From Proteobacteria bacterium SG_bin7 (GTDB taxonomy: Bacteria; Bdellovibrionota; Bdellovibrionia; Bdellovibrionales; SG-bin7), in NCBI GenBank assembly GCA_002083485.1, contig LWDK01000045.1, forward strand, positions 240 through 64,239: 64,000 bases of DNA, read 5' to 3'. Each line of letters starts with the position of its first letter. The first letter of the stretch is position 1. This document shows positions 3,976 to 41,136 of this stretch, one piece after another. Made by a program: the position numbers and the translations under genes. The notes under the pieces were generated by a model that worked only from the letters and a program-made list of their open reading frames with translations, was not told where the DNA came from and searched no databases.

Positions 3976-3996
3976 AGTACGTTAAAATAACGTACT
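3976..3996 (+). terminator. Terminator-like stem-loop AGTACGTTA-AAA-TAACGTACT, 11 nt upstream of the intron 5' end
   Basis: Perfect 9-bp arms with a 3-nt loop, followed by the T-rich sequence atttgaattat. Confidence 0.45.
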
Positions 3997-9684: not shown

Positions 9685-9755
9685 TTTCACTCCTAAGTTT
9701 TCATTGCGACATCCATGCCAAAATATGTTTCCACTTAAAAAAGCCGATTCTTGCG

Positions 9756-10064: not shown

Positions 10065-10071
10065 AATTTTT

Positions 10072-10130
10072 TATACTTTATTTAACTAATAAAATTGATA
10101 ATATTTTTATTATTACTAAAATAAAGTATA
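10072..10130. promoter_or_regulatory. Divergent promoter region with a 12-bp perfect inverted repeat TATACTTTATTT (10072-10083) / AAATAAAGTATA (10119-10130)
   Basis: Read directly from the sequence. A possible promoter for 10150 is TTGATA (10095-10100), N16, TAAAAT (10117-10122). In AT-rich DNA a chance match is possible. Confidence 0.35.
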
Positions 10131-10149
10131 TAAATATTTGTAATTAATA

Positions 10150-11019: not shown

Positions 11020-12642
11020 CTATTCGATTTCCTTCCAGATAATCTTTTCTGGTTGAGATCGAGAATTGTTAATGGTTTCTCCCCTTGTATCAACGACGTG
11101 AAAATTAATATTCATCCAGCGCGTCGCCATTTGGGCCGTGGGATAATTAGAAATGTTATTTAGAAACGAAGGAAGCTTAAGGCGTGTAAGAGGTACTTTA
11201 ACGGTTTGGACGGTAAAGCAATTCAAATCCTCACTCACCAAAAAAGGATCGGCGTTACGACACTCCTTTTTTTCTTCATCAAAAAATTGGAATTCAGCTG
11301 AAAAATAATCTTCGTTGGGTTGAACCGAAAATTTTTGAGAAAAATGACGTTCTGTATCTTTTAAAGACAAAGTCTTAAACAAATCTCCGAGAATGGTTTC
11401 ACGTTCACCATAACTAGCTAAAAACTCAGGGCTGTTTATTTTCACAAATGAAGCCAGCACGGCCGTAGCGACATCGGATCCGTGGGAAACACTAAAAGCG
11501 CAGTGACTACCCGTGGGTGTCTCGATGACAACAGCATTTTTTGTGGCCTCACGAAGGCGATAGGAGTTTTGCGATGATTTTACCACGGGATCGTCGGCAG
11601 CACCCCAAGCCAATATTGGAACTTGTGCCTCAGACGCCACACGCAGAAACGAATTGGTTTGCCAATATTCATTAGGGGTTTTTGGAAAACCAAAAATATT
11701 TGATCCGTTCCAATAATCAAGGGATGCAGCTGAAACTATTTCTTTGAGCCGTTCCGAAGACGGCTTTTTTCCGTCAGGAATAAGCCGATCAACAATTTTT
11801 ACCTTTCCCAACATTTCGACAAGCTGTAACCAAATTTTTTGTTGAATAAATCGCGCCTCTTTCTCGGGACGCAAAATATAATCAATCGAAGCCTCTAATT
11901 CAGTGACTGGGCAATGGGCCTGAACGCTACGAATAAATCTTTGGCCTTGCTGTGGTCCATAGACGGAAGAGAAAAAAGCTGCATGTCCCCCTAAGCTGGC
12001 TCCATGAACATGAATACTCGAAACTTGCTGTGAGAAATTTTCACTTACCCATTTTGCGACATCGACTAAGTACTGTCCTTCTTGAAGTCCCCCGACAAAC
12101 AATCGGCCATTGCTGAGTCCAAACTCTGCCGTTGTCGAACTCCCGACTAAAAGAACATGAAAAGGGCTTTCATCAAAAAGATGCATAAGAGGATCACGGA
12201 CGGAACTCGAGTTTAATGTATTACATGTAAGTCCACATTGAGAAATGACTAGAGGTCTGGGTTTATTTCCAGGCTTAAGAGCCAAAACTGCATGGAGTTT
12301 AGCTCCGTCTTTCATGCTTAATGTTACCGGCTTAATATAAGGAACCTCGAAATACTCATATTCGGCATTGGCAAGCTCCATGATCGCCGGAATTCCCGTC
12401 GAACCCATGAAAGTATGATATTCTTCGCACTCCTTAAAATAAGAATTCAGCTTTTCATTTCTCTGGGCAGGATTTTGAAAATTAAAAATAATTTTCTCAA
12501 CTCTTTGCGCTGAACATTTTTCAGGAAGTTCACGCGGACGCCTGCCATCCGGGATCCACTGATAATTTACTTTGGCAGCAAAAACTGTTTGGCTTAACGC
12601 CACGAGTGTAGTTACCAAGAAAGAGGTGAAATTGAAAATCAA
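11020..12642 (-). CDS. Secreted alpha/beta-hydrolase (lipase/esterase-like)
   Basis: Signal peptide, then nucleophile elbow HVHGASLGGHAA (GXSXG). Downstream acid and His candidates are AWGAADDPVV and TGSHCAF. Confidence 0.7.
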   Translation of the reverse strand: MIFNFTSFLVTTLVALSQTVFAAKVNYQWIPDGRRPRELPEKCSAQRVEKIIFNFQNPAQRNEKLNSYFKECEEYHTFMGSTGIPAIMELANAEYEYFEVPYIKPVTLSMKDGAKLHAVLALKPGNKPRPLVISQCGLTCNTLNSSSVRDPLMHLFDESPFHVLLVGSSTTAEFGLSNGRLFVGGLQEGQYLVDVAKWVSENFSQQVSSIHVHGASLGGHAAFFSSVYGPQQGQRFIRSVQAHCPVTELEASIDYILRPEKEARFIQQKIWLQLVEMLGKVKIVDRLIPDGKKPSSERLKEIVSAASLDYWNGSNIFGFPKTPNEYWQTNSFLRVASEAQVPILAWGAADDPVVKSSQNSYRLREATKNAVVIETPTGSHCAFSVSHGSDVATAVLASFVKINSPEFLASYGERETILGDLFKTLSLKDTERHFSQKFSVQPNEDYFSAEFQFFDEEKKECRNADPFLVSEDLNCFTVQTVKVPLTRLKLPSFLNNISNYPTAQMATRWMNINFHVVDTRGETINNSRSQPEKIIWKEIE

Positions 12643-12689
12643 GATTGCCCCGCCTAAGCTACTACAATAATTCTACTTTACGCTGTAAC

Positions 12690-15335
12690 TCAGTCAATAA
12701 GAATAGTGTCGCTTTTGGGGTTAACACCAATGTGCGAATCTTGCGGCCTAAGGCCAGCCAGGCCAACTCCTACCTTCTTAGCGATCTCTAGGGACTCCAA
12801 AATCTGCAATTTGCTAAGCTTACCCAAAGAGAAAGGTCTCATTATTCCAGCTAAACCTAAGGACACGGTTTCGGCGATACAGGAAAACGTACCAATGTCT
12901 GTATAAGGAATCCATGGATGTTGAATTTTTTGGTCATTGGGCAACCTTGCCAAGCCACCCTGAAAACAAGCGACGTCAGATCGCAACCAAACCTCACGAT
13001 GAATATTTGAGGGAACAGAAACATCCAGTACAATTGCATTCGATTTTATATGGGAACTACGAATAAATTCTTGCGTCGAGTTTGTGCCCACCACCACAAC
13101 ATCGCAATCCCTCAAGTCTTCAACATGATGAGAGAGCTTCAAGTTTTCAGGAAGAATTTTTGAACTCACTAATAGGTCCTCAACGGCTTTTTGAAATTTT
13201 GGACTCTTTTCAATTGGCTCCCGGTGAATCAGCGTCATAGACTTCACGCTGTCTGCAAGCAACTGAGATATAACGTGACAGATGTTGCCGCTAAAACCAA
13301 CAACTCCAAGACGAGCGTTTGCAAGATTAAATTTTCGCTCCTCCGCTAAAGATAAAATTCCTTGTACGGCCATTGCTGCCGTCAGACTATTTCCGGTTGT
13401 CAGGTATGTTCCGCAAGGATCGAGTAAAAGGCCATTATCGGAAACAATACTTGTAAACTGACCAAGCCCCAAATTTGTAACACCGTCAGCGGCCGCCATT
13501 TTTACAGCGTCTTGAGTTTTTTGAAAAGCCTGGAGGGATTGGCCCCTCACATTTTTTTCAAAAAAAGCTGTGGACAAAAAAAGGCCATAGATATTTAAAA
13601 AAATCTCCTCGCCATTTCGCCCAGTTATTTTTTGGCGATGAAACTTAAAAGGTATGGCTTGGTTAGCATAGTCTGCTAAAAATTTGTCAATTTTTTCAAG
13701 AGCTACAGGCTTTAAAGAAGTACACATATCACGCGCATGTCTGGCATGTAAAACATGAGTGAGAAAGCCAACCTCCCGAACACCCTCTTCGCGTTTTGGC
13801 AATGGTTCTTTAGCCGGAGCTACAACTTCAAGTTGCAACTGAGAAAACTCCTGCTTCCAGAGATGTGAAGTCAATTTCAAAACTTTTCTTTCGTATAAAA
13901 TCTGACACAACCTTTCAAGTCCCAAGACTAGAGAAGCTTTAGCCTCAGCAGAAATAAAAACCGACGGTTCAATACGGATAGTTTCTGGCGCGCTCAATGT
14001 AACACCGACGCGAACGCCACATTGGCGTAAAAGGTAACTCATGTAGAAATAAGTAGCGTGGCCATTTTCATAAAATCCATGCAAAAGATCCGGAAGTTTT
14101 GTTGATTCCTCAAAGCTAAATTCAATTCCGAGAAAAAAACCACGCCCTTTAAATTTTTTAATCACTTTGGGAAACTTGATATTTATGGTATCGATGCAAG
14201 ACTTTATGTCATGATAAAAATCAATGGCCCGCTTTTCGATATCGTCTTTATGTGTCTCTAGTATGTCGAGTGTTTTTAAGGCTAGAGCAGAGGAGAAATC
14301 GTCTTCCGCGAAGGTCGATGTGTGAATCCATCCAAAATGATCTTGATAGTGTTCCCGCGCGACCAATACGGCACCTATTTTTGCAAGTCCTCCACCTAAG
14401 CTTTTTCCCAAAAGAATATAATCGGGCCGAACTTGGGCACGCGTTACTGCCAAGAATGAACCCGTACGGTAAAGCCCTGATTGAATTTCATCACAGATAA
14501 GCGGTACACCCCGCGGTCGCAGGTACTTCTCAGCACCTTGCAAAAACTCCGACGCAAGTTCATTAATCCCACCCTCGCCCTGAATCGGCTCAAAAATAAA
14601 TCCAATGATTCGTGAAAACGAAGCAAGATTGCATTTACAGTCTAAATCACCAATCAAGTTCTCAAGCTTTTCTAAGGAATTTTCAGGGTTCAAAAAACTA
14701 ACGTCAAATAGCCCACCCGCTCGATACATCGATCGGTAGGCATCATTTGCAGTCGCCGCAACTGAGGCCGCGGTTTTACCATGAAAGCTTCCTTCAACCG
14801 CTAAAAGTAAGGGCTTGAGCGATTCGAGTTCCTTAATATAGTTTTCTAAAAGCGAATTTGGTTCACGAGCATTTTGAGCTTTGATCTTTAAAATAAAATC
14901 TGATTTTTTTTGATTCCACTCTAAGAGAGCATGCTTAATAGCCGCCTCAACCGCTTCTGTTCCTGAATTTGTAAGTGTCGTAATGAAGAGACGCGTATCC
15001 GCAGTATGTTTTTGGATCAAAAAATTTAAAGCTTCGGCAAGATCTGCTGATTTTGCGCGCGTCGAGGCCTGCGTGTGGATGGGCACTTTTTGCCCCAACA
15101 AGTCCGTTGCCAAACGCGTAAGCTCAGGATGGTTATGCCCTAAAATAGTAGAACCAAAACCACCCAAAAAATCATATACAACTTTAGTTTTTTCTTTTTC
15201 TATAAATTCAAGCTTATCGCTGCAGGCTTTGCTGTAAACCACATCTAATTTTAACAAGTTTAAGATTTTGCCTAATTCAGGACGAACAAATTTACTATAC
15301 TTCTCTTGAGGGCTCAAATCCGTGAGCGTTTTCAT
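12690..15335 (-). CDS. Fusion protein: class-III (omega-type) PLP aminotransferase plus an acyl-ACP-reductase (AAR)-like NAD(P) domain
   Basis: N-terminal half: LGHNHPEL, NSGTEAVEAAIK, EGSFHGKT, EPIQGEGGI, CDEIQSGLYRTG, LLGKSLGGG (PLP Lys). C-terminal half: GFLTHVL..ARHARD, GLGQFTSIV, TTGNSLTAAMA, VVGFSGNICHVISQ, FSCIAET. From memory, these are colinear with cyanobacterial acyl-ACP reductase. Confidence 0.8.
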   Translation of the reverse strand: MKTLTDLSPQEKYSKFVRPELGKILNLLKLDVVYSKACSDKLEFIEKEKTKVVYDFLGGFGSTILGHNHPELTRLATDLLGQKVPIHTQASTRAKSADLAEALNFLIQKHTADTRLFITTLTNSGTEAVEAAIKHALLEWNQKKSDFILKIKAQNAREPNSLLENYIKELESLKPLLLAVEGSFHGKTAASVAATANDAYRSMYRAGGLFDVSFLNPENSLEKLENLIGDLDCKCNLASFSRIIGFIFEPIQGEGGINELASEFLQGAEKYLRPRGVPLICDEIQSGLYRTGSFLAVTRAQVRPDYILLGKSLGGGLAKIGAVLVAREHYQDHFGWIHTSTFAEDDFSSALALKTLDILETHKDDIEKRAIDFYHDIKSCIDTINIKFPKVIKKFKGRGFFLGIEFSFEESTKLPDLLHGFYENGHATYFYMSYLLRQCGVRVGVTLSAPETIRIEPSVFISAEAKASLVLGLERLCQILYERKVLKLTSHLWKQEFSQLQLEVVAPAKEPLPKREEGVREVGFLTHVLHARHARDMCTSLKPVALEKIDKFLADYANQAIPFKFHRQKITGRNGEEIFLNIYGLFLSTAFFEKNVRGQSLQAFQKTQDAVKMAAADGVTNLGLGQFTSIVSDNGLLLDPCGTYLTTGNSLTAAMAVQGILSLAEERKFNLANARLGVVGFSGNICHVISQLLADSVKSMTLIHREPIEKSPKFQKAVEDLLVSSKILPENLKLSHHVEDLRDCDVVVVGTNSTQEFIRSSHIKSNAIVLDVSVPSNIHREVWLRSDVACFQGGLARLPNDQKIQHPWIPYTDIGTFSCIAETVSLGLAGIMRPFSLGKLSKLQILESLEIAKKVGVGLAGLRPQDSHIGVNPKSDTILID

Positions 15336-15409: not shown

Positions 15410-16117
15410 GTGTTGGAGTCGGCGGAAAATTTCAAAATGCAGAAAAAAACTTTGTGGATCGATCTCGATGGAACTCTTTTAGGATCAAACTCTCTTTTGT
15501 TGCGCCTTGGTTACATTACTTTATTTTGCTGGCAAATGCTTAAAAGAGGAATTAACCCTTGGCAATCGTTGAAAACTCTAAAAACAATGCGAATGCATTT
15601 AGAAATGACCACTTCTCTCAAGGAAAGTAACCTTGAACGAGCCGCACAGATTTTTGCAAAGCTGACGGCAGTGCCACTAAGTGAAGCACGTATTTTTTTA
15701 ACAAAATCTTCACTTGAAAATTTTCGATTGTTACGGCGAGTCTTCCATCCTATTCCTGAAGCTCTTGATTTTTTGAATTGGGCCAACCAGAAATTTGATC
15801 TCGTGCTGGCCACTAACCCTGTTTGGCCACTAGAGGTTGTAAAGTTTCGTATGGCACTTGCGGGAATTGATCCCGACAAGTTTTTGTGCATTACACATGC
15901 TGAAAACATGCATGCGTGCAAGCCCAACGTTCTCTACTACCAGGAGTTACTAGAGCGTTTGAACTTATCGCCAAAAAATTGTCTTATGATTGGGAATGAT
16001 CGTCGCAAAGATTCGCCGGCAAGCTACGTAGGAGTTCCCGTTTTTTTACTTGGTCGCGAAAACAGTTTTGAGCGTCTTAAAGAAAGATTAATTCAAGGTG
16101 ACTTTTGGAATCCATAA
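15410..16117 (+). CDS. HAD-superfamily hydrolase (alternative start at 15437)
   Basis: Motif I LWIDLDGTLL, motif II LATNPV, motif IV MIGNDRRKD. Confidence 0.8.
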   Translation: MLESAENFKMQKKTLWIDLDGTLLGSNSLLLRLGYITLFCWQMLKRGINPWQSLKTLKTMRMHLEMTTSLKESNLERAAQIFAKLTAVPLSEARIFLTKSSLENFRLLRRVFHPIPEALDFLNWANQKFDLVLATNPVWPLEVVKFRMALAGIDPDKFLCITHAENMHACKPNVLYYQELLERLNLSPKNCLMIGNDRRKDSPASYVGVPVFLLGRENSFERLKERLIQGDFWNP

Positions 16118-17136
16118 AAGAATATCGTGATTTACTAATTTTAACTCGCAAATTACCACGCCACCAACAACAAATTAATAATTTATTTGAAGCCGACTGT
16201 GAAATTGTAAAAATAAATAGTAAGTACTATTTTACGGCAACGACGGACTCCATTGGCGAAGAGATTAGTATGGGTCTTTATACTGATCCCGAGACCTGGG
16301 GCTGGATGACAGTTATTTCTTCAGTTTCAGATTTAGCGGCATCTGGCAGCAGCTGCGTGGGACTACTTGTTTCTTCGCAATGGAAATTTAAAACCCCTAA
16401 ACAAGTACAACTTAAAACTTATAAAGGCATCAGAGAGGCTCTTAAGACTTCTAAGACTTGCATCCTTGGCGGCGACTCTGGGTTTGCGGGTGACTTCGTT
16501 TTAACCTCAACGGCTTTCGGAACTTCATCAGTCAAACCTCTAACTCGGGTTGGTGCAAGGCCTGGAGATTGGATAGGTATTATTGGCAAAAAGAAAACAG
16601 GCATCGGACCTGCTCTTGCCTTTTCTTACCTTTTTTCGCCGAGCGATAGATCGAAGTTAGAAAAAGAATTTCGCCCAAGCCCCTCCCTACAAAGAATGTC
16701 AACTCTCAGAAAATATTGTTCAGCTTCTATCGACACGAGCGACGGCATTGCTACAAGTCTAAATATTCTGGGGAGCTTAAACAAGGTAGGTTTCGATTTA
16801 GACTGGCGTGAAGATCTCATCCATCCTCTTGCTAAGAAGCTCTGTCGCAAACTTGGATTTCATGAGCTCATGTTATGGATGGGCGACCATGGTGATTTTC
16901 AAACTTTGGTTTCAATTCCCAATCGCCATCTCGCGAAAGCCAAAAAAACTGTAAGAGACCTAGTAATCATTGGACGCGTTACTGATGAAATCGGAAAAAC
17001 ACAGGTGCGTTTTGGAGAAACTCAGATTCGGTTACCTATTGAACTCGTGACTCGATGTCCACGAGACCTTGAATCTATTAAAAAACTTACTTTAAATGTT
17101 GCGGGTTACTTTGCAAATACCGGCTGTAAAAACTAG
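16105..17136 (+). CDS. AIR-synthase-related (PurM/ThiL-fold) ATP-utilizing protein
   Basis: DCEIVKI...TTDSIGEEI, WMTVISSVSDLAASG, GGDSG, RPGDWIGIIG, ASIDTSDGIATSL. Confidence 0.8.
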   Translation: MESIKEYRDLLILTRKLPRHQQQINNLFEADCEIVKINSKYYFTATTDSIGEEISMGLYTDPETWGWMTVISSVSDLAASGSSCVGLLVSSQWKFKTPKQVQLKTYKGIREALKTSKTCILGGDSGFAGDFVLTSTAFGTSSVKPLTRVGARPGDWIGIIGKKKTGIGPALAFSYLFSPSDRSKLEKEFRPSPSLQRMSTLRKYCSASIDTSDGIATSLNILGSLNKVGFDLDWREDLIHPLAKKLCRKLGFHELMLWMGDHGDFQTLVSIPNRHLAKAKKTVRDLVIIGRVTDEIGKTQVRFGETQIRLPIELVTRCPRDLESIKKLTLNVAGYFANTGCKN

Positions 17137-17887
17137 CGGTATTTTTTATATTTAGAGACCGTGGTAGGAATTTAAATAAAAAAGCCATTGCCTTGTTAGT
17201 AAGTCCTGGAACGGTTATCGACCTGTCACGATTGAGAGTTTTCATGACAGAGTCCGCAACTTCATCTGCCGATAAAATCACTTTGCCGAATTTTTTTATT
17301 ACTCTCTCATCTAACCCTGCCGTACGATGAAAAGTCGTGTCCACTCCTCCTGGACAAATGGCATTTACCTTAACCCCCGCCCGACCGTATTCATAGTTTA
17401 GCGATTCACTCAAAGACGTTACATACGCCTTTGTCGCAGCATAAACAGAAAAATAAGGCGAAGGAATAAAGCCAGCCAGTGAAGAGATATTAATAATTTG
17501 ACCACCACCCGCACTTGCCATTTGACGGCCAATTCGTAGCGTTAAATAGGTAAGTGCCAAACAGTTGAGTTGAATCGAGGTCAACATATCCGGAATAGAC
17601 TCTTTAAGAGCCTCACCGAAAACCCCGCGACCAGCATTGTTCACAAGTAAATCGACACGGCCAATGCGATCAAGCATCTGCGCGCAGGCCTTCTCATCGG
17701 TTAAATCGACGGCTTCAATTTGGACTGACACGTGAGATCTTATTTTTTCGAGATCTATTTTCGTTTGCTCCAAAATCGCCTGACCACGCGCCACTAAAAT
17801 TAAGTCCCAACCATTGGCTACAAGCTTTTTAGCAATGCTTGCGCCAATTCCCGTTGACGCCCCCGTGACTAAAGCACGCTTATTCAT
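17087..17887 (-). CDS. Short-chain dehydrogenase/reductase (SDR)
   Basis: TGASTGIG cofactor motif, NNAG, and catalytic YAATKAY. Confidence 0.9.
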   Translation of the reverse strand: MNKRALVTGASTGIGASIAKKLVANGWDLILVARGQAILEQTKIDLEKIRSHVSVQIEAVDLTDEKACAQMLDRIGRVDLLVNNAGRGVFGEALKESIPDMLTSIQLNCLALTYLTLRIGRQMASAGGGQIINISSLAGFIPSPYFSVYAATKAYVTSLSESLNYEYGRAGVKVNAICPGGVDTTFHRTAGLDERVIKKFGKVILSADEVADSVMKTLNRDRSITVPGLTNKAMAFLFKFLPRSLNIKNTASFYSRYLQSNPQHLK

Positions 17888-18557
17888 TTTTTACCCATTT
17901 TACACTCTGATGAAAGTTTTTATGCTCACTCATTTCTTTAGAGCCGTCGTCCAAAAATTTTTCGAGGTCGTTATGAATTGAATCTTTTAGGTCCAAATTG
18001 CCAGATTCAGTAAAATTCCAAATCCGCACGTAATTATTAAGCGCCTGATACTTGGCACGCACAGTGAATTTTTCATAGGATAATATCGTCAAACCAAATA
18101 ATTTAAGCGGCTTAAGTTTGCCTTTAATAAAAATAAAGCATTCGACATTGGGTTTGGCAAAACAAGAAATTTCATCTGATTTATAAGATGTGAATTTTCC
18201 GCCGTCCATGTTTTCCGTGTCCAATTTGCAGTGGCGAGTCCAAGTACTAGCTGAAGCTTTCTCTGTACAATTCGATAGAAGCTTCGAAGTAATCCCCAAC
18301 GACGAAACGGTCATGATTGAACGGTACTCTAGAGACGAGATACCTTCCACGGTAATTTTCTTAATATTAGTGCCAACGCGGGTCAATAGATCGCCATCTT
18401 TAAAATTCTTTTTTACTAACTCTAAGGAAACCTTCGGAGAAAAAACCAATTGCATTTTAAGACCATAACCTTTTGCATCTATATCAATATTGTATTCAAA
18501 TGAAGGCTTCGTCATTGCCATTGCAAAATTAAAAGTGGCTAGAAACATAAAAATCAT
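17880..18557 (-). CDS. Secreted hypothetical protein, coupled between the MMPL exporter and the SDR
   Basis: Hydrophobic N-terminus. Overlaps both neighbours (8 nt and 4 nt). No motif recognised. Confidence 0.6.
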   Translation of the reverse strand: MIFMFLATFNFAMAMTKPSFEYNIDIDAKGYGLKMQLVFSPKVSLELVKKNFKDGDLLTRVGTNIKKITVEGISSLEYRSIMTVSSLGITSKLLSNCTEKASASTWTRHCKLDTENMDGGKFTSYKSDEISCFAKPNVECFIFIKGKLKPLKLFGLTILSYEKFTVRAKYQALNNYVRIWNFTESGNLDLKDSIHNDLEKFLDDGSKEMSEHKNFHQSVKWVKNE

Positions 18558-20773
18558 TTTTTCAGCCTCCCCTGCAAAAGACCATTAAGCAACCAAAGAT
18601 CTCCTATCAGAGACGTTATCAAACCAAACGCTAAGATCAAACCAAAACCTTTTGGGGGAGAGAAATAAGACCCCAAATAAATAAATGCCGTCAGCGTCAT
18701 CAAAACATTGGTGATGACCGACGCCCCACCGCGACGTTCTATCCCTTCGCGTAAATCGTGCCTTCTGGCTGCAAAAATGTATTGAATCGCATTGTCCCCC
18801 GCAAGACCGACCAAAACACTGGCCACAACACATTTCATAAAATCCATCTGAATACTCAAAGTAGCTAGCATACCAATTGTAAGAAACGGCCCCCAAAACG
18901 CCGTGGCCAAAAGGGGAAAAATCAAATGCTGTTTATAAAATACTTTTGCAAGATAATAGATTACAATGGCTACAAGGAAAAGGCTTGCCATCATACTATC
19001 AAGCAACGTCTTTGGCACAATTGCAGAGAAGTCTGCGTAGGCTATAAGTTCACCGGCAAAATAACATTCCCGATTAGGACAGATGTTTTCGGCCGCTTTT
19101 TTTAATTTAATTAGGGAATCAACCGTCGTATCTTTAATAAAAATCAAGGCTCTGGCAATTCCATTTTCATCAACCGTACGTTTGTAGAGCGAAGAAGTTT
19201 TATAATCAGATTGCGTTAACTCTTTGGGTATGAGGTGGTCTTTATCGAGCCAATTCATAACTCGCTCCGGACTCTCCACCGCAATTATATTATTTTTGAC
19301 CGACTCGTCTCGATTTAAATCACCAATGTACTTTTCAAGTTGAGAAAGTGCCTCTGGCCTTGTTAAAACCAAAGATACATTTGAAACCCAACCCTTGCTG
19401 TTAAGAAACTCCTGCACGCCTAAAGAGAATTCATTTTTCCTTGGAAACATTTGATAAGGGTTGTCATTGACATTTAAATGTGAAAACGAATAGAGCCCGA
19501 TAGGAAATACAATTAGCGAGATAAGACTTAAGCGGCGTGGTAACGACTTAATCCCCCAGCGGTCTAAAAAATGATACCCCCATGCCCGTTTTGGATCCAC
19601 CCACATATTTTCCTTATAAAATCGGATTAAAAATACCGGCATAAAGGAGAACATAAGGAACCACTCAAGCGCCGCACCAAACGCGGCCCAAAACCCTAAA
19701 CGTTTAATCACGGCTAGATCAGAAACATAGAGCGACAAAAAACCCACGATCGTGGTCAGTGAGGTAAAGAAAGACGGTAAGATCATGCGCTTGATTGCAC
19801 TTTTCCATTTTACCCCTTTCATCTGTTCTGAACATATGAAGGTAAAGTCTTCAAGAGAACTGATACCCAATAAAAGAATTAAACCCGTAGACAGAACATC
19901 AAACGGAGATCCTAAAAAACCTTTTAAGCCAATCAATACAAGAGTGCCAAAAATAAATGTACAGCAATAAATCGTTCCGGCGATCCATGTACCGTAGACA
20001 AAACGTAGTGAGAAAAAGAGAAAAAAAATCATTGTTAAATTAAGAATGGAAGAAAAGCGAAACCCTTCTAAGACATACCATTGATAATCCGCGGGCCCGA
20101 CCCAAGAAAATTTTGCACCTTCTAAAAGAGGTTTTAGGTCTCTATCTACGGCTAAACGCAAGTGGTTGAGCATCCGGGGATCAAAACTGCCAAATTTTTC
20201 GCTATTCATTTCAGCGAAAGTAAATCCCATTAAAATACTGAGATGATCTTTTTTATCTTTAAAGAAAACATACGGTGAGTTCTCAAGACGTGATTTGACG
20301 CTCTGAAGGTCGTAGGCTATGGCCTCATCTTCACACCTTAGATGTAAGATATTTTTGTAGCTAACTGATGACGCACCACTGGGTTGAATATCTTTAGCAT
20401 CAAAAGTGGACAAAGTACTTTTTAAAAATGGATAAGTGGCACGCATGACGGAGTACCACTTACGTAAATGGCAAAGCTCCTGCGGAGAAAACGATTTTCC
20501 GGAAGGCTGGATAAACAGAATAGACGCAATCCCTTCGTCATAGCGCACCTTGAGATCGCGCAATTCTTCAGCGCTCGGTATGCCTTCGCCGATCATATCA
20601 TCGGCTGAGAAAATAAATTTTAGCTTCGAGGAGTAAGTAATTGCGATGAAAGTCAGTGCCAATACCAGGCACAGAGTTAGGCGAAATCGACTCCAAAAAA
20701 AACGGCATGAGCGTATAAGAAATAGCGAAAAAACAACAAAACTGCGGCGACTGAGATTTTTCATTGAACTCAT
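18554..20773 (-). CDS. MMPL/RND-superfamily exporter (two 6-TM bundles with soluble loops)
   Basis: Two hydrophobic blocks (about aa 235-390 and 590-735) are separated by large soluble domains. SSD-like helices include FTSLTTIVGFLSL and AGDNAIQYIF. Confidence 0.8.
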   Translation of the reverse strand: MSSMKNLSRRSFVVFSLFLIRSCRFFWSRFRLTLCLVLALTFIAITYSSKLKFIFSADDMIGEGIPSAEELRDLKVRYDEGIASILFIQPSGKSFSPQELCHLRKWYSVMRATYPFLKSTLSTFDAKDIQPSGASSVSYKNILHLRCEDEAIAYDLQSVKSRLENSPYVFFKDKKDHLSILMGFTFAEMNSEKFGSFDPRMLNHLRLAVDRDLKPLLEGAKFSWVGPADYQWYVLEGFRFSSILNLTMIFFLFFSLRFVYGTWIAGTIYCCTFIFGTLVLIGLKGFLGSPFDVLSTGLILLLGISSLEDFTFICSEQMKGVKWKSAIKRMILPSFFTSLTTIVGFLSLYVSDLAVIKRLGFWAAFGAALEWFLMFSFMPVFLIRFYKENMWVDPKRAWGYHFLDRWGIKSLPRRLSLISLIVFPIGLYSFSHLNVNDNPYQMFPRKNEFSLGVQEFLNSKGWVSNVSLVLTRPEALSQLEKYIGDLNRDESVKNNIIAVESPERVMNWLDKDHLIPKELTQSDYKTSSLYKRTVDENGIARALIFIKDTTVDSLIKLKKAAENICPNRECYFAGELIAYADFSAIVPKTLLDSMMASLFLVAIVIYYLAKVFYKQHLIFPLLATAFWGPFLTIGMLATLSIQMDFMKCVVASVLVGLAGDNAIQYIFAARRHDLREGIERRGGASVITNVLMTLTAFIYLGSYFSPPKGFGLILAFGLITSLIGDLWLLNGLLQGRLKK

Positions 20774-20797
20774 TTAAGTTAGTTATACTATAACACT

Positions 20798-22147
20798 ATG
20801 AAAAACAGTCCAATTATTCTTTTGATGGCATTGACCCCAATTGACGCAAGTTTTTTCACAGCGCAAAAGGCCGAAGTATTAAAAGGAAATTTCAACTCCG
20901 CAACCGCGCAGTGGACGACATCAACCCAACGTGAACCAGAATGGGGGTCGTTGCCACGGGCCCCACTGCGTGAAATTAGTTATCAGCCTGATTCCACTGC
21001 CCCTCTTGAGATTGATAACAAAACAATGATGCGTCTTTCTGAAAATAGCGAAGTGGCACTTTATCAGAATGGAAAATCTTTGGAGGCTATACTCAACCTT
21101 GTTAACAAAGCTGAAAAATTTATTTTTATTCAGGTCCTAGCCATAGCTTGCGATGAAAGTACAGAGTCTCTTTTTGAAAAGCTAAAAGAAAAAGCAAGAT
21201 CTGGGATTGACGTTAAGATCATTGTTAATAAAACCTATTCTTTTTTAAGTTATAGCTGTTTACGTGAATTAAAAAATAGTGGTATTGCTATAAGCAAAGC
21301 TCCCACACATTCAACGTATTTGCTCAACGATAAAGGAAACCTATTAATTGGTGCCCAAAGCTTTACCAAAACGTTTTTTTATTCTGACGGATTTAATTTT
21401 CTCGACCGCGATATGATGCTGCATGCACATGGTCCAGTTTCTAAGGAGGCTCTTATCGACTTCATTGAAACATGGAATGAAAATGAAGAAACAAAAATTG
21501 ATAACTTCAAATATATCCTCACCATGGCAAAAATAAATAGTCCCAAAAAATGTCTTTTTGTTTCGCAAAAGCCAAAATCTAAAAAACGTGATTTACAAAA
21601 TCTGCTTCTGAATTTATCTGAGAAATCAAAACAGAGTATCATTGCCAGTGGCGTCAAGATCTTACAAAACGACTCCACAATGAGTTTAATTAAATTGTTG
21701 AAAAATAAATCGATCTCTGGGGTCCGGGTTGATTATATTGGAAATGGTTGGGACGGTGGGAACGGCGAACTTACCATGTACCTTAACGAACTTTACCATA
21801 GATATTTAGATAGAGGTCGAAAGTACTTGGCCAAAACTATAAACTGGTTACGCGAAAAAGATCAAATCAGTCAGAGCAAAAAGCATTTTAAAGCCTATAA
21901 ATCCCTAGTTGCGGATTCAGATATCACGGTCTGGACGTATTTTAATTTTGTTCACTACAAAGTTTGGAGCTTTGATAACTCAGGTATTTTTGTAGGAAGC
22001 GCAAATGTCGCGGAAGATTCTTTCGAGTCTTTTTATGAAGCCGGAGTTTTTTGCTTAGATCGAGCCTTGTCTGAGGAGCTCAATCATGAACTCGCTCGTG
22101 ACAAGGCCAATTCTATTCCGATTTATCGAGAGTCGCTTACCTTATAA
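20798..22147 (+). CDS. Phospholipase D / cardiolipin-synthase-like protein with one degenerate and one canonical HKD motif
   Basis: Motif 1: HSTYLLNDKGNLLIGAQS (Lys replaced by Thr, Asn by Ser; His171 codon at 21308). Motif 2: HYKVWSFDNSGIFVGSAN (canonical HxKx4Dx6GSxN). Confidence 0.8.
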   Translation: MKNSPIILLMALTPIDASFFTAQKAEVLKGNFNSATAQWTTSTQREPEWGSLPRAPLREISYQPDSTAPLEIDNKTMMRLSENSEVALYQNGKSLEAILNLVNKAEKFIFIQVLAIACDESTESLFEKLKEKARSGIDVKIIVNKTYSFLSYSCLRELKNSGIAISKAPTHSTYLLNDKGNLLIGAQSFTKTFFYSDGFNFLDRDMMLHAHGPVSKEALIDFIETWNENEETKIDNFKYILTMAKINSPKKCLFVSQKPKSKKRDLQNLLLNLSEKSKQSIIASGVKILQNDSTMSLIKLLKNKSISGVRVDYIGNGWDGGNGELTMYLNELYHRYLDRGRKYLAKTINWLREKDQISQSKKHFKAYKSLVADSDITVWTYFNFVHYKVWSFDNSGIFVGSANVAEDSFESFYEAGVFCLDRALSEELNHELARDKANSIPIYRESLTL

Positions 22148-25079: not shown

Positions 25080-25145
25080 TTATCTCATTAACTCTCACTT
25101 AAATTCTCTTGGCAACCATTAAATGCTTTGTTGATAATTAGAGGC

Positions 25146-26105
25146 ATGCGCGCTTTAGTCACTGGTGCAAATGGATTTCTCGGGTCAAAGCTAACTCGCC
25201 GACTTGTTGAGTTAGGTCACGAGACCATTTGCTTTGTGCGACCCGCGAGTAATCTTTCAAATATCGCCACTCTCAATGTCGACATGGCTTTCGGAAACGT
25301 TACCAATAAAACTGACGTCTTCAACGCTTGCAAAGGCATAGATGTAGTTTTTCACCTGGCGGCTGTAATTGCTTCTGATAAAAGGCAAATGCGCGAGCTG
25401 GATGTCGTTAACATTGGCGGTACCCAGAATATTGTCGAATCCGTTCGCGATTTAGGAGTTAAGAAGTTAGTTCATGTATCTTCGGTTGTCGCCATCGGCG
25501 CCGAAACAAGTCAAGATCGAGTACTGAATGAAAAATCGCCCTATAATAACTTACTTGCCGCTAATAAAAATATGGCGAGTAAAAAACATGGTGAAGAAAT
25601 TGTCCTTGCCGCTTGCCGTCGCAAAGAAGTAAATGCCGTAATTGTGAACCCAAGTTTAATTTTTGGGGCTGGGGATGCCCAAAAAAGTACGCGCACGAGT
25701 AATATTCGCGCTGCCAATGGAAAGTTGAAGTTTTTCACTGAGGGCGGCGTCAACATCGTTGCCGTGGAAGATGTGGTCGACGGAATTGTTGCCGCTTACG
25801 AACGCGGGCGTTCGGGAGAGCGCTACATTCTTGGTGGTGAAAACATCACGATACGCGAGCTGCTAACTCACATCGCCAATTGCGCAGGCGCGACACCGCC
25901 GAAGTACAAGCTTCCCTCAAGCCTTTTAAAAATCGCCGCTCGACTCACGAGTCGTGTAACTCGTGAAAATATTATAGCGGCAACCATGTACCATTGGTTC
26001 GATAACTCGAAAGCCAGACATGAGCTAGGATTTAATCCTCGCCCTGCACGTGAAGCCATAAAAAATTCAGTCACTTGGATGAAAGAAAACGGCTATGTAC
26101 TTTGA
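25146..26105 (+). CDS. NAD-dependent epimerase/dehydratase-family (extended SDR) reductase
   Basis: MRALVTGANGFLGSKL Rossmann motif. The track ORF begins at 25128. Overlaps the next gene by 11 nt. Confidence 0.85.
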   Translation: MRALVTGANGFLGSKLTRRLVELGHETICFVRPASNLSNIATLNVDMAFGNVTNKTDVFNACKGIDVVFHLAAVIASDKRQMRELDVVNIGGTQNIVESVRDLGVKKLVHVSSVVAIGAETSQDRVLNEKSPYNNLLAANKNMASKKHGEEIVLAACRRKEVNAVIVNPSLIFGAGDAQKSTRTSNIRAANGKLKFFTEGGVNIVAVEDVVDGIVAAYERGRSGERYILGGENITIRELLTHIANCAGATPPKYKLPSSLLKIAARLTSRVTRENIIAATMYHWFDNSKARHELGFNPRPAREAIKNSVTWMKENGYVL

Positions 26106-26808
26106 AAGTAAAACGCGCATTATTATCAAAACGATTTCCTGGCGGTTATTTGGTACTCTGGCGACTGTGACACTTGCGTATATCTTTACACGTAAAATAG
26201 AAACAGCGTTTCAAATTGGTAGTCTTGAATTGCTCCTCAAATCTTTGATTTATTACTTTCACGAAAGATTCTGGAACAAAGTTAACTATGGAAAAAAGCA
26301 AAATCCTCCAAAGGTAATTTGGTTCACGGGACTTTGCGGTGCCGGTAAGACAACAATCGCCCAAATTCTTGCGAAAAAATTGCGCACTAAAAATATTAAG
26401 ATCGAGGAACTCGACGGTGATAGTCTTAGAAGTATTTTTCCAAAAACAGGATTTACCCGCCAAGACCGTGATCAGCATATTCGCCGTGTCGGTCATTTGG
26501 CCAGCCGTCTCGAGTCTCATGGCGTTCACGTTATCACGTCACTGGTATCGCCCTATCGGGAATCTCGTGAATTCGCGCGACACATTTGTAAAAACTTTTT
26601 TGAAGTTTATATTTCGACGCCTATAGAGACTTGCGAAAAAAGGGACCCGAAGGGTTTATATGCAAAAGCACGTGCCGGAGAAATAAAAAATTTTACGGGA
26701 ATTGATGATCCCTATGAACCACCAATGAACCCAGAAATCACCGTCGACACCCACAAAATGTCGGCCGAGCAAGCCGCTGACTTAATAATAAAGGGACTCG
26801 ATGTCTAG
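26095..26808 (+). CDS. cysC: DUF2061 membrane domain fused to adenylylsulfate (APS) kinase
   Basis: The N-terminal ~65 aa are hydrophobic (KTISWRLFGTLATVTLAYIF..YYFHERFW). P-loop WFTGLCGAGKTTIAQ and SLVSPYRESRE follow. Confidence 0.9.
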   Translation: MYFESKTRIIIKTISWRLFGTLATVTLAYIFTRKIETAFQIGSLELLLKSLIYYFHERFWNKVNYGKKQNPPKVIWFTGLCGAGKTTIAQILAKKLRTKNIKIEELDGDSLRSIFPKTGFTRQDRDQHIRRVGHLASRLESHGVHVITSLVSPYRESREFARHICKNFFEVYISTPIETCEKRDPKGLYAKARAGEIKNFTGIDDPYEPPMNPEITVDTHKMSAEQAADLIIKGLDV

Positions 26809-27685
26809 TCATCTTGACGAGCTTGAAAGTAAAGGTATTTTTATTCTTCGCGAAGCTCATGCAAATTTTCGCGATCTTGGGATGTTATGGTCCATTGGCA
26901 AAGACAGCACTGTTTTATTGTGGCTCGCACGTAAAGCTTTTTTCGATAAAATTCCGTTTCCACTTATACACATCGACACCGACTACAAAATTCCCGAAAT
27001 GATTGCCTATCGTGATCAGTTAGCTCTCACCTGGAAACTGGATTTAATAGTTGGTAAAAATGTTGAGGCTTTGCAGAAAAAACAGACTTACGCCGACGGA
27101 TACATTGATCGTGTCAGCTGCTGTCGGTCGTTAAAAACCCAAGCCCTCCAACAAACTATCGATGGATCGGGGCCTCAGTATCGTCTCAATCTCCAAACTG
27201 AAAAATTCGATGAACTTAAAGAGAAAAGGCACTTTTCGGGTCTTATCTTAGGCATTCGCGCCGATGAAGAAGGCTCACGCTCTAAAGAGCGATATTTTTC
27301 TCCTCGTGACACAAACAACCACTGGCAAATTATCGAACAGCCGCCAGAATTTTGGAACCAGTTCAATACCGACATCGCACCTAATAGTCATGTTCGAATT
27401 CATCCATTGTTAGATTGGACTGAAGTAAATATTTGGGAGTATATTTATCGCGAAAGAATTCCAACTGTGTCTTTATATTATGATCAAGGTAAGGGATCAC
27501 GGTATCGGTCTCTAGGTTGTTATCCATGTACGTTTCCCGTGACATCTAAGGCAAAATCCCCTGAAGAAATTATTTTTGAATTAAAGTCCGGAAAGTTTTC
27601 TAAAGTTGCCGAGCGCGCCGGGCGCGCTCAGGATAGAGAAGATGGTGGTGGACTCGAAACTCTCCGCAAAGAGGGGTACATGTGA
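26801..27685 (+). CDS. cysD: Sulfate adenylyltransferase subunit 2
   Basis: [13 protein letters not shown] (PP-loop), [16 protein letters not shown], and the C-terminal [20 protein letters not shown]. Confidence 0.9.
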
Positions 27686-28923: not shown

Positions 28924-29177
28924 GACCCTCGTGAAGTATCACCTCCCGCCACAGAGAGACCAAGACGGGCATAGAGTGAAGACAATGATCTGTTGAAGTG
29001 AGCTATATTTTCTTCGCTAAATGTTTTTGGGAAAGTCAGTGAGTGCACGATCACACTGATCTTATACTGGCTCACCATAACCTCTAATTTTTTAGATAAT
29101 TTTTCGATAAAACCAGCTCCTTCACAAGCTACTGCAATTGTTTCTATTGACATACGCGTATTGCTCCTTGCAGACAA
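28924..29177 (-). pseudogene. Possible remnant of a PurM/ThiL-fold N-domain
   Basis: The 107-aa ORF (28854-29177) contains ...LTFPKTFSEENIAHFNRSLSSLYARLGLSVAGGDTSRG, resembling the ThiL/PurM N-domain ending in GGDT. It is squeezed between cysN and the lipid kinase and overlaps both. Confidence 0.25.
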
Positions 29178-31924: not shown

Positions 31925-31939
31925 TTGTGGTCAATCCCC

Positions 31940-41061: not shown

Positions 41062-41136
41062 CGGGGCCTCCCTTTTTTCTATATTAATTTAATCAATTAA
41101 GTTGTCTAATTGTCCAGGCTCAAATAGCCTACTTTT

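Follow-up and report, generated by a model that had tools for sequence, protein, structure and literature searches.

Single polypeptides that turn a thioester into an amine have been known since TamH, PigE, and KecF and are already pursued as fatty-amine biocatalysts. PtTamH of Pseudoalteromonas tunicata (tambjamine YP1 pathway; UniProt A4C5V8) is a fusion of a transaminase (TA) and a thioester reductase (TR) that in vitro converts C12-ACP via the C12 aldehyde to the C12 amine (dodecylamine) and refuses acyl-CoA; its authors modelled the reductase domains lateral to the transaminase dimer core and reported no tunnel (PMC9594044). The amine made by TamH is coupled to an aldehyde by TamQ, a PigC homologue (PMC6667630). 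PigE (Serratia, prodigiosin MAP branch; PDB 4PPM) also reduces a thioester, in this case 3-acetyloctanoyl thioester, and then transaminates the aldehyde, as part of a pigment pathway (PMC8341465). The TAm-AAR architecture is further found in KecF and PP_2782 (PpKTFusion) and in the thermophile enzymes TmFusion, TsFusion, and TfFusion; KecF/PP_2782-type enzymes belong to type-II-PKS-like clusters making tetrahydropyridine alkaloids (koreenceines), and of their activities only the transaminase was measured, that of the reductase being inferred (PMC10829540; PMC6498172). A previous sequence-only reading of the DNA analyzed here was aware of no characterised fusion of an acyl-ACP reductase (AAR) and a transaminase; a claim of novelty on this ground is wrong given the publications on PigE (PMC8341465), PtTamH (PMC9594044), KecF, PP_2782, and the three thermophile enzymes (PMC10829540, PMC6498172).

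We compared these systems with an ORF in a 64,000-nucleotide stretch of the SG_bin7 genome (the window; features in Table 1). The ORF does join a PLP transaminase to an acyl-ACP-reductase-like domain: the ORF listing returned the same coordinates and strand as the sequence-only reading, and the proposed architecture of a class-III aminotransferase and an AAR-like reductase with a catalytic Cys was borne out by Pfam, NCBIfam, PDB profile, and fold comparisons. All quoted motifs were located in the protein (LLGKSLGGG at residue 308, GFLTHVL at 523, ARD at 534, GLGQFTSIV at 623, TTGNSLTA at 646, VVGFSGNICHV at 678, and FSCIAET at 817, which places the Cys at 819). An AF2 model of the full-length fusion (pLDDT 90.9, pTM 0.89) provided the two-domain structure prediction that had been proposed as a check, and matched a transaminase fold in the N-terminal part and the fold of the Synechococcus elongatus AAR (SeAAR) in the C-terminal part. 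K311, G680, G683, and C819 were invariant in 40 homologues. BLASTP aligned residues 34-865 with residues 25-928 of PtTamH in a single collinear HSP (E = 3e-84, 28% identity), in which the PLP Lys, the GxxG motif, and the catalytic Cys all met their PtTamH counterparts. On its sequence, the protein has the features of a TamH-type (TAm-AAR) enzyme, namely a transaminase domain with its Lys followed collinearly by an AAR-like domain with its Cys.

The assignment of the first ~480 aa to the class-III PLP transaminases, including the Lys, held up in each comparison: Pfam Aminotran_3 (PF00202) matched residues 44-470 (E = 1.2e-51), and the best Foldseek matches of this domain were CrmG (5DDW; E = 2.5e-36, TMt 0.82), YgjG, and PigE (4PPM). 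The Asp of the DEIQ motif is presumably the residue that, in class-III transaminases, binds the pyridine N of PLP. Lys311 aligned with the lysine of PtTamH LAKSLGGG, designated K340 in the PtTamH paper (PMC9594044).

In NCBIfam, the C-terminal 379 aa matched the AAR model TIGR04058 (E = 1.2e-12; positions 3-315 of the 339 in the profile) and, with a better score, the N-terminal portion of the model for PigE (E = 6e-32). [quoted passage not shown] The modelled domain matched SeAAR (6JZY/6JZU) with E = 4e-21 and TM 0.71–0.78, compared with TM ~0.3 for the next fold class beyond AAR and the AAR-like TAD. Of the five motif pairs listed in the sequence-only reading, four appeared in the SeAAR alignment (GLGQFTSIV/ALGGFTSII, TTGNSLTA/TTGNTHTA, VVGFSGNI/VVGATGDI, and FSCIAET/FACFAEA), and the fifth (GFLTH...) falls at TIGR04058 profile position 3, consistent with the claimed match. 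Dehydrogenase families, to which the domain might instead have belonged, scored 13–24 bits (shikimate dehydrogenase, HemA, FolD, and SbnB) versus 48 for AAR and 111 for the PigE N-terminus, and the Cys invariant among the 40 homologues aligned with that of AAR; the outcome that the sequence-only reading had named as refuting did not arise. More specifically, Cys819 aligned with SeAAR Cys294 (FACFAEA), PigE GCMAET, and PtTamH C887, the glycine motif GFSGNIC aligned with SeAAR GATGDIG and PtTamH GAAGNIG (G707/G710), and HRE after strand beta-2 aligned with TARN of SeAAR. The pocket residues F550/L554/I555 of PtTamH correspond to a conserved GF-x-T-H-x-[IL] motif, with F524/V528/L529 as the counterparts in the fusion.

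Table 1. Features of the fusion gene and the surrounding locus (window coordinates)
Feature	Coordinates	Strand	Evidence or conservation
Alpha/beta hydrolase, signal-peptide-like N-terminus	11020..12642	-	Weak Abhydrolase_1 match; 47 bp downstream of fusion
TamH-type transaminase/AAR-like thioester reductase fusion (predicted)	12690..15335	-	Complete ORF, ATG start, 881 aa
AAR-like thioester reductase domain, residues ~520-865	12741..13778	-	NCBIfam, PDB profile, Foldseek
Cys819 codon, predicted acyl-enzyme nucleophile (FSCIAET)	12879..12881	-	Invariant in 40 homologues
Predicted nucleotide-binding glycine motif GFSGNIC (G680-x-x-G683-N-I-x)	13278..13298	-	G680, G683, N684, I685 invariant (40 homologues)
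Inter-domain linker, residues ~491-519	13779..13865	-	Weak conservation between two domain matches; mostly non-regular secondary structure in model
Class-III (fold-type I) PLP transaminase domain, residues ~1-490	13866..15335	-	Pfam, Foldseek
Lys311 codon, predicted PLP Schiff-base lysine (LLGKSLGGG)	14403..14405	-	Invariant in 40 homologues
DEIQ motif, Asp282-Gln285	14481..14492	-	D282, E283, I284, Q285 invariant (40 homologues); aligned to PtTamH DEIQ
HAD hydrolase	15410..16117	+	Pfam, NCBIfam
ThiL-like AIRS/PurM-superfamily protein	16105..17136	+	Pfam, NCBIfam
SDR	17087..17887	-	17087..22147 block: genes occur together with fusion in 8-14 related loci
Conserved 225-aa protein without assigned function	17880..18557	-	Same block
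HAE3/HpnN/MMPL-like RND exporter	18554..20773	-	Same block
PLD-like protein	20798..22147	+	Same block
HpnA/OleD-like NAD-dependent reductase (epimerase family)	25128..26105	+	Family scans
PAPS genes CysC (with DUF2061), CysD, CysN	within 25128..28923	+	Family scans
Lipid kinase (DAGK_cat/YegS-like), P-loop kinase-like protein, second ThiL-like protein	within 29144..36715	-	29144..36715 block recurs in Bacteriovorax relatives L001, L003-L007
Spt-like alpha-oxoamine synthase	30611..31924	-	Serine palmitoyltransferase model; same block
Two PEP-synthase-like/Rph/PigC-like proteins	32962..35262, 35246..36715	-	Same block
NTP_transf_5 protein, two acyl-CoA-dehydrogenase-like proteins, conserved 255-aa protein	within 36715..42198		Distal part of locus, partly conserved in L008, L015, L025, L033, L044
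Sulfotransferase	41137..42198	+	Distal part of locus

The fusion sits in a ~30-kb lipid-type locus (about 12.7–42 kb) without pyrrole or PKS genes. As previously read from the sequence, the HAD and PurM-like genes are divergent from the fusion, and this pair is kept beside it in the Bacteriovorax relatives that share the 29144..36715 block (L001, L003-L007). The locus was also compared with bacterial sphingolipid (Spt/bCerS/CerR) clusters. The best model for the oxoamine synthase was serine palmitoyltransferase, at 355 bits versus a cut-off of 640 and with BioF and Kbl close behind, the HpnA/OleD-like protein is a reductase of the epimerase family, and family scans of the locus found no recognisable bCerS acyltransferase. 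Three conserved ORFs of the locus had no family match in Pfam/NCBIfam scans. A Psd gene was also counted in the lipid context, beside the Spt-like synthase, YegS-type lipid kinase, PLD, HpnN/MMPL-like RND, and PAPS/sulfotransferase genes. As for the hydrolase, which had been suggested to be co-transcribed with the fusion, its gene shares the strand of the fusion after a gap of 47 bp and its N-terminus resembles a signal peptide; the neighbour link is not conserved (a hydrolase homologue adjoins the fusion in 0 of 81 related loci). A promoter-like site (TTGACT-16-TAGAAT, 12697..12670) lies just upstream of the hydrolase gene, and the hydrolase is probably outside the fusion system.

We consider the best joint explanation, with a probability of roughly 0.75, to be that the fusion is a TamH-type bifunctional enzyme that converts a thioester via an aldehyde to an amine, and that this amine is a building block of an envelope lipid. 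Homology, fold, conserved catalytic residues, and domain order were observed for the fusion itself, and the chemistry is taken from the homologue; the thioester-to-aldehyde-to-primary-amine sequence anticipated in the sequence-only reading is well supported by the end-to-end alignment with PtTamH together with the in vitro activity of the latter. By this analogy, the fusion probably converts fatty acyl thioesters to fatty amines. The AAR-like domain would load Cys819 with the acyl chain of a phosphopantetheinyl thioester, and the acyl-enzyme would be reduced by NAD(P)H at the G680-x-x-G683 Rossmann site (the cofactor is NADH in PtTamH and NADPH in SeAAR), releasing a fatty aldehyde. The N-terminal transaminase, with PLP on Lys311, would then aminate the aldehyde to a long-chain primary amine using an amino-acid donor, which is L-Glu or L-Ala in characterised relatives; we infer the substrate, cofactor, and amino donor of the SG_bin7 enzyme from such analogies. 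No ACP-like ORF was detected in the window, no acyl-ACP synthetase or fatty acyl-AMP ligase in the locus, and no AMP-binding or ACP family member in the first 46 kb of the window in the locus comparison; the only AMP-binding gene (46163-48172) is Acs-like and lies beyond both this range and the locus. Because the locus has no dedicated ACP or ligase, the thioester donor is most likely acyl-ACP of fatty-acid synthesis. With the conserved gene neighbourhood as its basis, the proposed fate of the amine is incorporation into a putative amino- or sphingo-like envelope lipid, probably phosphorylated and/or sulfated, which the ~30-kb locus would make and the RND transporter would export. The searched literature documents no fatty-amine-containing lipid of Bdellovibrionota.

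Relatives of the fusion were counted in at least 374 species-level genomes, many of them from Bdellovibrionota, Acidobacteriota, and Gemmatimonadota. We compared the neighbours in 81 related loci and, for the partner counts, in 49 well-flanked loci, with the first 46 kb of the window entered. In Acidobacteriota relatives, the fusion adjoins an AMP-binding ligase, a stand-alone ACP, an acyl-CoA dehydrogenase, and a desaturase, an arrangement that follows the TamA/TamT/TamH logic. The commonest neighbour was the PPDK-like (PEP-synthase-like/Rph/PigC-like) family, present in 22 of the 49 well-flanked loci and adjacent in 12, with overlaps of 0–10 bp with the fusion gene in several phyla, in both gene orders and with overlapping stop and start codons. 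AMP-binding ligases were present in 10 of the 49 and never together with a PPDK-like gene (Fisher p = 0.001, phylogeny uncorrected), and 17 had neither. One way to account for this pattern, although we judge it unlikely, is carrier-free activation within the same acid-to-aldehyde-to-amine chemistry, in which a PPDK-like enzyme or an ATP-utilising ThiL-like protein would convert a carboxylate to an acyl-phosphate that is captured directly by Cys819, comparable to ArgB-ArgC-ArgD, with no ACP or CoA thioester and a substrate that is not necessarily a plain fatty acid. The mutual exclusion, the gene overlaps, the ACP-free window, and the ArgD/ornithine-type class III character of the transaminase domain are in line with this. 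Yet the enzymes known from the PPDK/Rph/PigC class use phospho-His to phosphorylate oxygens of hydroxyl or carbonyl groups, and we know of none that makes an acyl-phosphate; moreover, the characterised AAR-type domains (SeAAR, PtTamH, and PigE) all take phosphopantetheinyl thioesters. The loci with neither partner, and the 18 kb separating the PPDK-like genes from the fusion in SG_bin7, also speak against it, and the exclusion itself tracks clades of the distance tree and so may reflect phylogeny instead of function.

A catabolic direction, as also floated in the sequence-only reading, seems very improbable. It would run from a long-chain amine or an amino lipid to an aldehyde and, with NAD(P)+, to acyl-Cys819 and on to CoA or ACP, as in an acylating aldehyde dehydrogenase. 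Transamination is reversible, acylating aldehyde dehydrogenases share the same Cys-thioester chemistry, and the taxonomy of its matches suggests that the host is a relative of predators that feed on the lipids of their prey. The characterised homologues are nevertheless all biosynthetic, and the conserved neighbours (Spt-like synthase, PAPS/sulfotransferase, PLD, and RND exporter) serve biosynthesis and export, not beta-oxidation or uptake, as do the ligase, ACP, and desaturase that accompany the fusion in Acidobacteriota; this biosynthetic context gives the reverse reaction no support. We give still less credence to a TAD-like C-terminal domain, where a nitrogen would attack acyl-Cys819 to form an amide and the transaminase would supply or process the nitrogen donor (compare carmabin-type NRPS). 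TAD structures (9E4S-9E56) were the second-best class for the modelled domain (E ~1e-15, TM ~0.67), and the Cys and NAD site are common to TAD and AAR (bioRxiv 10.1101/2024.10.28.620694). The profile matches nonetheless place the domain far closer to AAR and PigE than to TAD; TADs occur in fusion with NRPS carrier domains and not with transaminases, dimerise through a macrodomain-like N-lobe, and have an activity that is itself undemonstrated (bioRxiv 10.1101/2024.10.28.620694), whereas the release of an aldehyde has been demonstrated for the homologue TamH (PMC9594044). We rejected membership of the NRPS TAD family, as an NRPS is absent and TAD is not the closest sequence family.

Returning to a TamH-type enzyme that supplies an amine for an envelope lipid, the strongest candidate for the step that couples or modifies the amine, by analogy with TamQ, is the PigC/TamQ/Rph-like ATP-dependent enzyme. 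The comparison with TamQ is an analogy only, since the PPDK-like proteins match the Rph, PEP-synthase-like, and PigC/RedH families about equally and below all cut-offs. A bolder and decidedly tentative reading is that an ancient module of two genes, the fusion and the PigC/TamQ/Rph-like gene that overlaps it, is shared by Bdellovibrionota, Planctomycetota, Sericytochromatia, Spirochaetota, and further phyla. In this module, a fatty amine would be made and then coupled or activated with ATP, as by TamH and TamQ, and enter an as yet undescribed class of N-alkyl or amino(sphingo)lipids in the cell envelope, with phosphorylation, sulfation, and HpnN/MMPL-like RND export added in the SG_bin7 lineage; in a sub-variant, the PPDK-like enzyme would replace the ligase-ACP pair in acid activation. 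In size and in taxonomic range, the family in any case extends far beyond the pigment and alkaloid clusters where it has been studied, and in Bdellovibrionota, Acidobacteriota, and Gemmatimonadota lineages the fusion lies in loci of the membrane-lipid type, where its translation is often coupled to that of an ATP-dependent enzyme of the PigC/Rph class. If these loci make an amine-containing envelope lipid, this would add a lipid class for predatory bacteria and give biocatalysis TamH variants that work independently of ACP or with housekeeping ACP.

Among the known systems, the fusion and PtTamH share the order of a class-III transaminase, a ~40–50-aa linker, and a C-terminal AAR-like thioester reductase, as well as their structural homologues (CrmG/YgjG/PigE and SeAAR). 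Their loci both hold a PigC-family gene and acyl-CoA-dehydrogenase-like genes (TamQ- and TamT-like roles). The fusion is, however, 60 residues shorter than PtTamH and only 28% identical to it, and its locus has neither a TamA-type ligase-ACP partner nor bipyrrole (MBC) genes. Pfam and NCBIfam scans of ORFs of at least 90–100 aa between 8 and 54 kb revealed no MBC genes or PigI/G/A/J/H/M/F homologues, and no prolyl-AMP ligase, PCP, ketosynthase, and O-methyltransferase set. The only prodiginine-pathway-like matches in that region were the PigC-class protein, the oxoamine synthase, and the ACAD-like proteins. Each half of the fusion had PigE as its best match in NCBIfam, but PigE carries its two domain types in the opposite order, with the reductase N-terminal, and in the PigE model NF053554 the transaminase accordingly aligned to positions 506-732 and the reductase to 73-333; an assignment as PigE equivalog was rejected (288.9 bits versus a cut-off of 850). 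KecF-type loci of Cellvibrio and Zoogloea were among the relatives (30–31% identity, residues 9-867), although the KecF/PP_2782 type and the SG_bin7 fusion fall in different clades of the distance tree. SeAAR (TIGR04058) shares its fold with the C-terminal domain at ~19–21% identity, and with the equivalent of Cys294 and a glycine-rich NAD(P)H motif in place, a ping-pong acyl-enzyme mechanism would be expected. SeAAR is a stand-alone enzyme paired with an aldehyde-deformylating oxygenase to yield alkanes, and no member of the ferritin-like ADO family was found in Pfam scans of the locus ORFs; the fusion was also rejected as an AAR equivalog (47.9 bits versus a cut-off of 449.7), being fused and not a stand-alone protein of ~340 aa. 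The pairing of an SDR-type TR from PKS/NRPS with a separate omega-transaminase (for example, coelimycin CpkC-TR/CpkG), like CAR and omega-TA cascades, leads overall from an activated acid via an aldehyde to an amine, but the PKS/NRPS TR has the SDR "NAD_binding_4" fold, which is not AAR-like, and the partner proteins are unfused. PtTamH belongs to a pigment cluster, compared with the membrane-lipid-type locus of the fusion. The enzyme type is already characterised and widespread; what is new is to find it within a large membrane-lipid gene cluster, in a Bacteriovorax-like predator.

In the fusion both catalytic domains are intact, their catalytic residues are invariant, and the domains follow the TamH order. 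Each motif quoted in the sequence-only reading, which had described a class-III transaminase fused to a domain like cyanobacterial acyl-ACP reductase (AAR), was located at a defined residue position in the 881-aa protein (table below). Pfam assigns residues 44-470 to a class-III aminotransferase domain (E = 1.2e-51), and across 40 aligned full-length homologues, 32-50% identical to the window protein, Lys311, Asp282-Gln285, Cys819, Gly680, Gly683 and Asn684 do not vary. A confident model of the full-length fusion (pLDDT 90.9, pTM 0.89) had as its best structural matches CrmG, YgjG and the transaminase domain of the prodigiosin enzyme PigE. CrmG is an aldehyde-aminating transaminase. The same set makes up the published structural homologues of PP_2782 and of PtTamH, the tambjamine enzyme of Pseudoalteromonas tunicata.

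For the C-terminal domain, Pfam gave only a generic Rossmann match over residues 663-789 (Shikimate_DH, 31 bits). When the last 379 residues alone were scanned against NCBIfam, they matched the N-terminal part of the PigE model (profile 73-333; E = 6e-32, 111 bits) and the AAR model TIGR04058 (profile 3-315 of 339; E = 1.2e-12, 48 bits), and the SbnB, HemA, FolD and shikimate dehydrogenase models reached 13-24 bits; the protein lies below the equivalog cut-offs of both the PigE and AAR models. In the PDB, a profile from 14 homologous C-terminal domains recovered the N-terminal region of PigE (4PPM, E = 2e-40), Synechococcus elongatus AAR (6JZU, residues 32-317 of 341, E = 6e-25), the AAR-like terminal amidation domain (TAD) of the carmabin NRPS (E = 3e-9) and, over ~80 Rossmann residues only, malate dehydrogenases (E = 1e-4 and weaker). 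These alignments pair the Cys of FSCIAET with AAR Cys294 (FACFAEA) and with GCMAET of PigE. Modelled with AlphaFold2 (pLDDT 88.7), residues 505-881 matched AAR crystal structures best (E = 4e-21, TM 0.71/0.77), with TAD second and a sharp drop to TM ~0.3 for other dehydrogenases. Scores and fold together rule out a shikimate/HemA/FolD-type dehydrogenase and bear out the AAR-like assignment, with the catalytic Cys aligned and no higher score for shikimate/HemA-type models.

PtTamH, from the tambjamine pathway, has its transaminase at the N-terminus and an AAR-like reductase, bearing a GxxGxxG motif and Cys887, at the C-terminus. When coupled to TamA, a ligase-ACP protein, it turns C12 acid into C12 amine by way of C12-ACP and C12 aldehyde; it uses NADH and L-Glu, and C12-CoA is not a substrate (PMC9594044). 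Its sequence, machine-read from the supplement of PMC9594044 with a few characters lost, aligned at residues 25-928 with residues 34-865 of the window protein in a single collinear HSP (E = 3e-84, 28% identity) that brings the catalytic Cys, the Schiff-base Lys and the glycine motif of the two proteins into register. The published acyl-pocket residues F550/L554/I555 of PtTamH correspond to F524/V528/L529, in a conserved GF-x-T-H-x-[IL] motif. The chemistry of PtTamH and this collinear alignment make the earlier inference of a thioester-to-aldehyde-to-amine module mechanistically well founded, but not novel. The accompanying statement that no AAR-transaminase fusion had been characterised was wrong: in addition to PtTamH, natural fusions have been published in KecF, PP_2782 and three thermophile homologues (PMC10829540; PMC6498172), and PigE, long labelled a transaminase, also reduces the thioester intermediate with its AAR-like N-terminal domain (PMC8341465, summarised in PMC10829540). 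The observed fusion is confirmed, and among proteins of the TamH/KecF/PigE kind the window protein is a new and divergent one.

More than 1,000 relatives of the fusion (E ≤ 1e-10) are present in the protein database, the nearest (~50% identical) in Bacteriovorax and Bacteriovoracaceae MAGs. A locus search with a single sequence returned only an unrelated Neobacillus transaminase; querying with an alignment (A1), at one genome per species, gave 374 relatives, placing the fusion in at least 374 genomes. The closest group (37-50% identity) comprises Bdellovibrionota, Gemmatimonadaceae and Terriglobia, and remoter groups (30-33%) comprise Acidobacteriota, Planctomycetota, Bacteroidota, Sericytochromatia and Spirochaetota, as well as Cellvibrio and Zoogloea, which are among the genera with PP_2782-type clusters listed in a 2024 paper (PMC10829540). 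One 1107-aa homologue (76% query coverage) is annotated from the chytrid fungus Chytridiales sp. JEL 0842; horizontal transfer into a eukaryote and contamination are both possible explanations. Literature searches returned no papers on the fusion in Bdellovibrio and none tying it to Bdellovibrionota or membrane lipids.

Features of the fusion protein and of its locus in the window
Feature	Position	Strand	Remarks
Fusion ORF	12690..15335	-	ATG start, 881 codons
LLGKSLGGG	residue 308		Lys311 in motif
GFLTHVL	residue 523
GLGQFTSIV	residue 623
TTGNSLTA	residue 646
VVGFSGNICHV	residue 678
FSCIAET	residue 817		Cys819 in motif
HAD hydrolase and ThiL-like AIRS protein (the first paralogue of the next row)			divergent from fusion
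Two ThiL-like (AIRS/PurM-superfamily) paralogues	16105-17136; 31940-32965	+; -	112-130 bits, under ThiL cut-off 184
SDR	~12.7-42 kb locus
Conserved 225-aa ORF	17880-18557	-	no Pfam/NCBIfam match
HAE3/HpnN/MMPL-like RND transporter	~12.7-42 kb locus
PLD-like protein	~12.7-42 kb locus
558-aa ORF	22137-23813	-	no Pfam/NCBIfam match
MFS transporter	~12.7-42 kb locus
HpnA/OleD-like NAD-dependent reductase	~12.7-42 kb locus
CysC, CysD, CysN	26095-28923	+	PAPS synthesis
YegS/DAGK-type lipid kinase	~12.7-42 kb locus
P-loop kinase-like protein	~12.7-42 kb locus
Alpha-oxoamine synthase			best model serine palmitoyltransferase, 355 bits, below cut-off 640
Two PEP-synthase-like/Rph/PigC-like (PPDK-like) proteins	32962-35262; 35246-36715	-
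NTP_transf_5 protein	~12.7-42 kb locus
Two acyl-CoA-dehydrogenase-like proteins	~12.7-42 kb locus
255-aa ORF	40294-41061	-	no Pfam/NCBIfam match
Sulfotransferase	41137-42198	+
Phosphatidylserine decarboxylase	44.6 kb		after locus

The fusion gene lies outside any pigment, alkaloid or PKS/NRPS cluster, and gene order around its orthologue is near-identical in Bacteriovorax MAGs (six loci). The downstream alpha/beta hydrolase, previously proposed as its co-transcribed partner, lacks any counterpart across 81 related loci and was discarded as a pathway member; an unrelated 186-aa ORF takes its position in the Bacteriovorax relatives. The full PAPS-synthesis set and sulfotransferase in a lipid locus hint at a sulfated lipid product. 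CysC in the window carries a DUF2061 membrane segment at its N-terminus. Both ThiL-like paralogues are kept in the Bacteriovorax relatives and may use ATP to phosphorylate a lipid head group. One of the 225-, 558- and 255-aa ORFs could encode the N-acyltransferase that is missing from the pathway. All three co-occur with the fusion, each in 5-9 related loci, and wherever the 225-aa ORF is found the PLD-like gene is present too. A motif scan of window ORFs of 55-140 aa gave no credible ACP-like ORF (a 107-aa ORF at 28854-29177 is not ACP-like), and the locus contains no AMP-binding ligase, the only one in the window being Acs-like and beyond it (46163-48172). Counts from a promoter/terminator scan were no higher than the shuffled expectation.

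Just outside the locus, at 8089-10965, are a 533-aa protein (signal-peptide-like N-terminus, no family match), a 102-aa HTH protein and a 271-aa DUF4423 protein, none of them conserved beside the fusion elsewhere. Mobile elements are abundant at the left end of the window, which has an IS-type integrase (rve) ORF at 889-1884 and a group II intron at 3900-5822 (+), with Rfam RF02005 (domains D1-D4) at 4041-4269 (82 bits) and a 477-aa reverse-transcriptase/maturase ORF downstream (4389-5822).

ORFs were called in all fetched loci and clustered, and recurrent families were named. Across phyla, PPDK-like three-domain enzymes neighbour the fusion more often than any other family (the window and nine further loci). 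Such a gene adjoins the fusion in Bdellovibrio and relatives, a second Bacteriovoracaceae group and single Planctomycetia, Sericytochromatia and Spirochaetes loci, often with overlapping stop or start codons (gaps of -10 to 0 bp, in both gene orders). Of the 49 loci in which the fusion is flanked by three or more ORFs per side, 22 carry the PPDK-like family (adjacent in 12), 10 an AMP-binding ligase, none both and 17 neither (Fisher p = 0.001, uncorrected for phylogeny); in a distance tree, both associations track clades. The window PPDK-like protein and eight fusion-adjacent homologues were no nearer PigC than Rph or PEP-synthase-like models; a specifically PigC-like assignment was rejected on these equal scores, all under cut-off, and the proteins are assigned to the class only. 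In Bacteroidota and some others (six loci) the fusion is followed immediately by a FemAB/Acetyltransf_6-type acyltransferase. In eight Bdellovibrio-type loci a class-I methyltransferase comes after it and a P450 is close by; further recurrent immediate neighbours include CarS-like and UbiA-like membrane enzymes. Several of these families are plausible modifiers of an amine or a lipid, the acyltransferase and methyltransferase being candidates to N-acylate or N-methylate the amine.

In a homologue, acyl-ACP has been shown to form an acyl-Cys intermediate, from which hydride transfer yields an aldehyde for PMP-dependent amination to a primary amine; the window protein would follow the same steps. 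The substrate of the window protein is probably a fatty acyl thioester, for which housekeeping acyl-ACP would be the simplest donor because the locus has no dedicated carrier, and the amine would then enter the surrounding lipid pathway. Activation without a carrier, carried out by the PPDK-like or the ThiL-like enzymes, is an attractive alternative given the mutually exclusive distribution of PPDK-like enzymes and ligases, but is without precedent in the PPDK-like class. The genomic context argues against the fusion running in reverse as a catabolic enzyme. Amidation by the C-terminal domain in the manner of TAD is unlikely, as the similarity to TAD is lower than to AAR and the activity of TAD is itself unproven. 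Support for acyl-ACP having been the ancestral substrate type comes from eight Acidobacteriota loci. There, a conserved block runs from an oxoamine synthase, acyl-CoA dehydrogenase, SCP2 and an amino-acid-permease-like protein through the fusion to an AMP-binding ligase, fatty-acid desaturase, ACP, SDR, PAP2 and GMC oxidoreductase.

Among known systems, the Caulobacter ceramide and ceramide-phosphoglycerate genes were rejected as a direct template for the locus: CpgA is PgsA-like, CpgB LCB5-like and CpgC without a conserved domain, and PPDK-like, AIRS-like and transaminase-AAR genes are missing. TamQ condenses the amine made by TamH with the aldehyde MBC (PMC6667630), and by analogy the PigC-class neighbour suggests a TamQ-like, ATP-dependent coupling or activation step. 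Underexplored aspects of the fusion are its lipid-type genomic setting and how tightly and recurrently it is coupled to a PigC/Rph-class enzyme. The window protein has a domain order identical to that of PtTamH, and the Acidobacteriota block, which has the appearance of a self-contained pathway to an aminolipid or sphingolipid-like product, reproduces the logic of TamA/TamT/TamH in a lipid-like setting.
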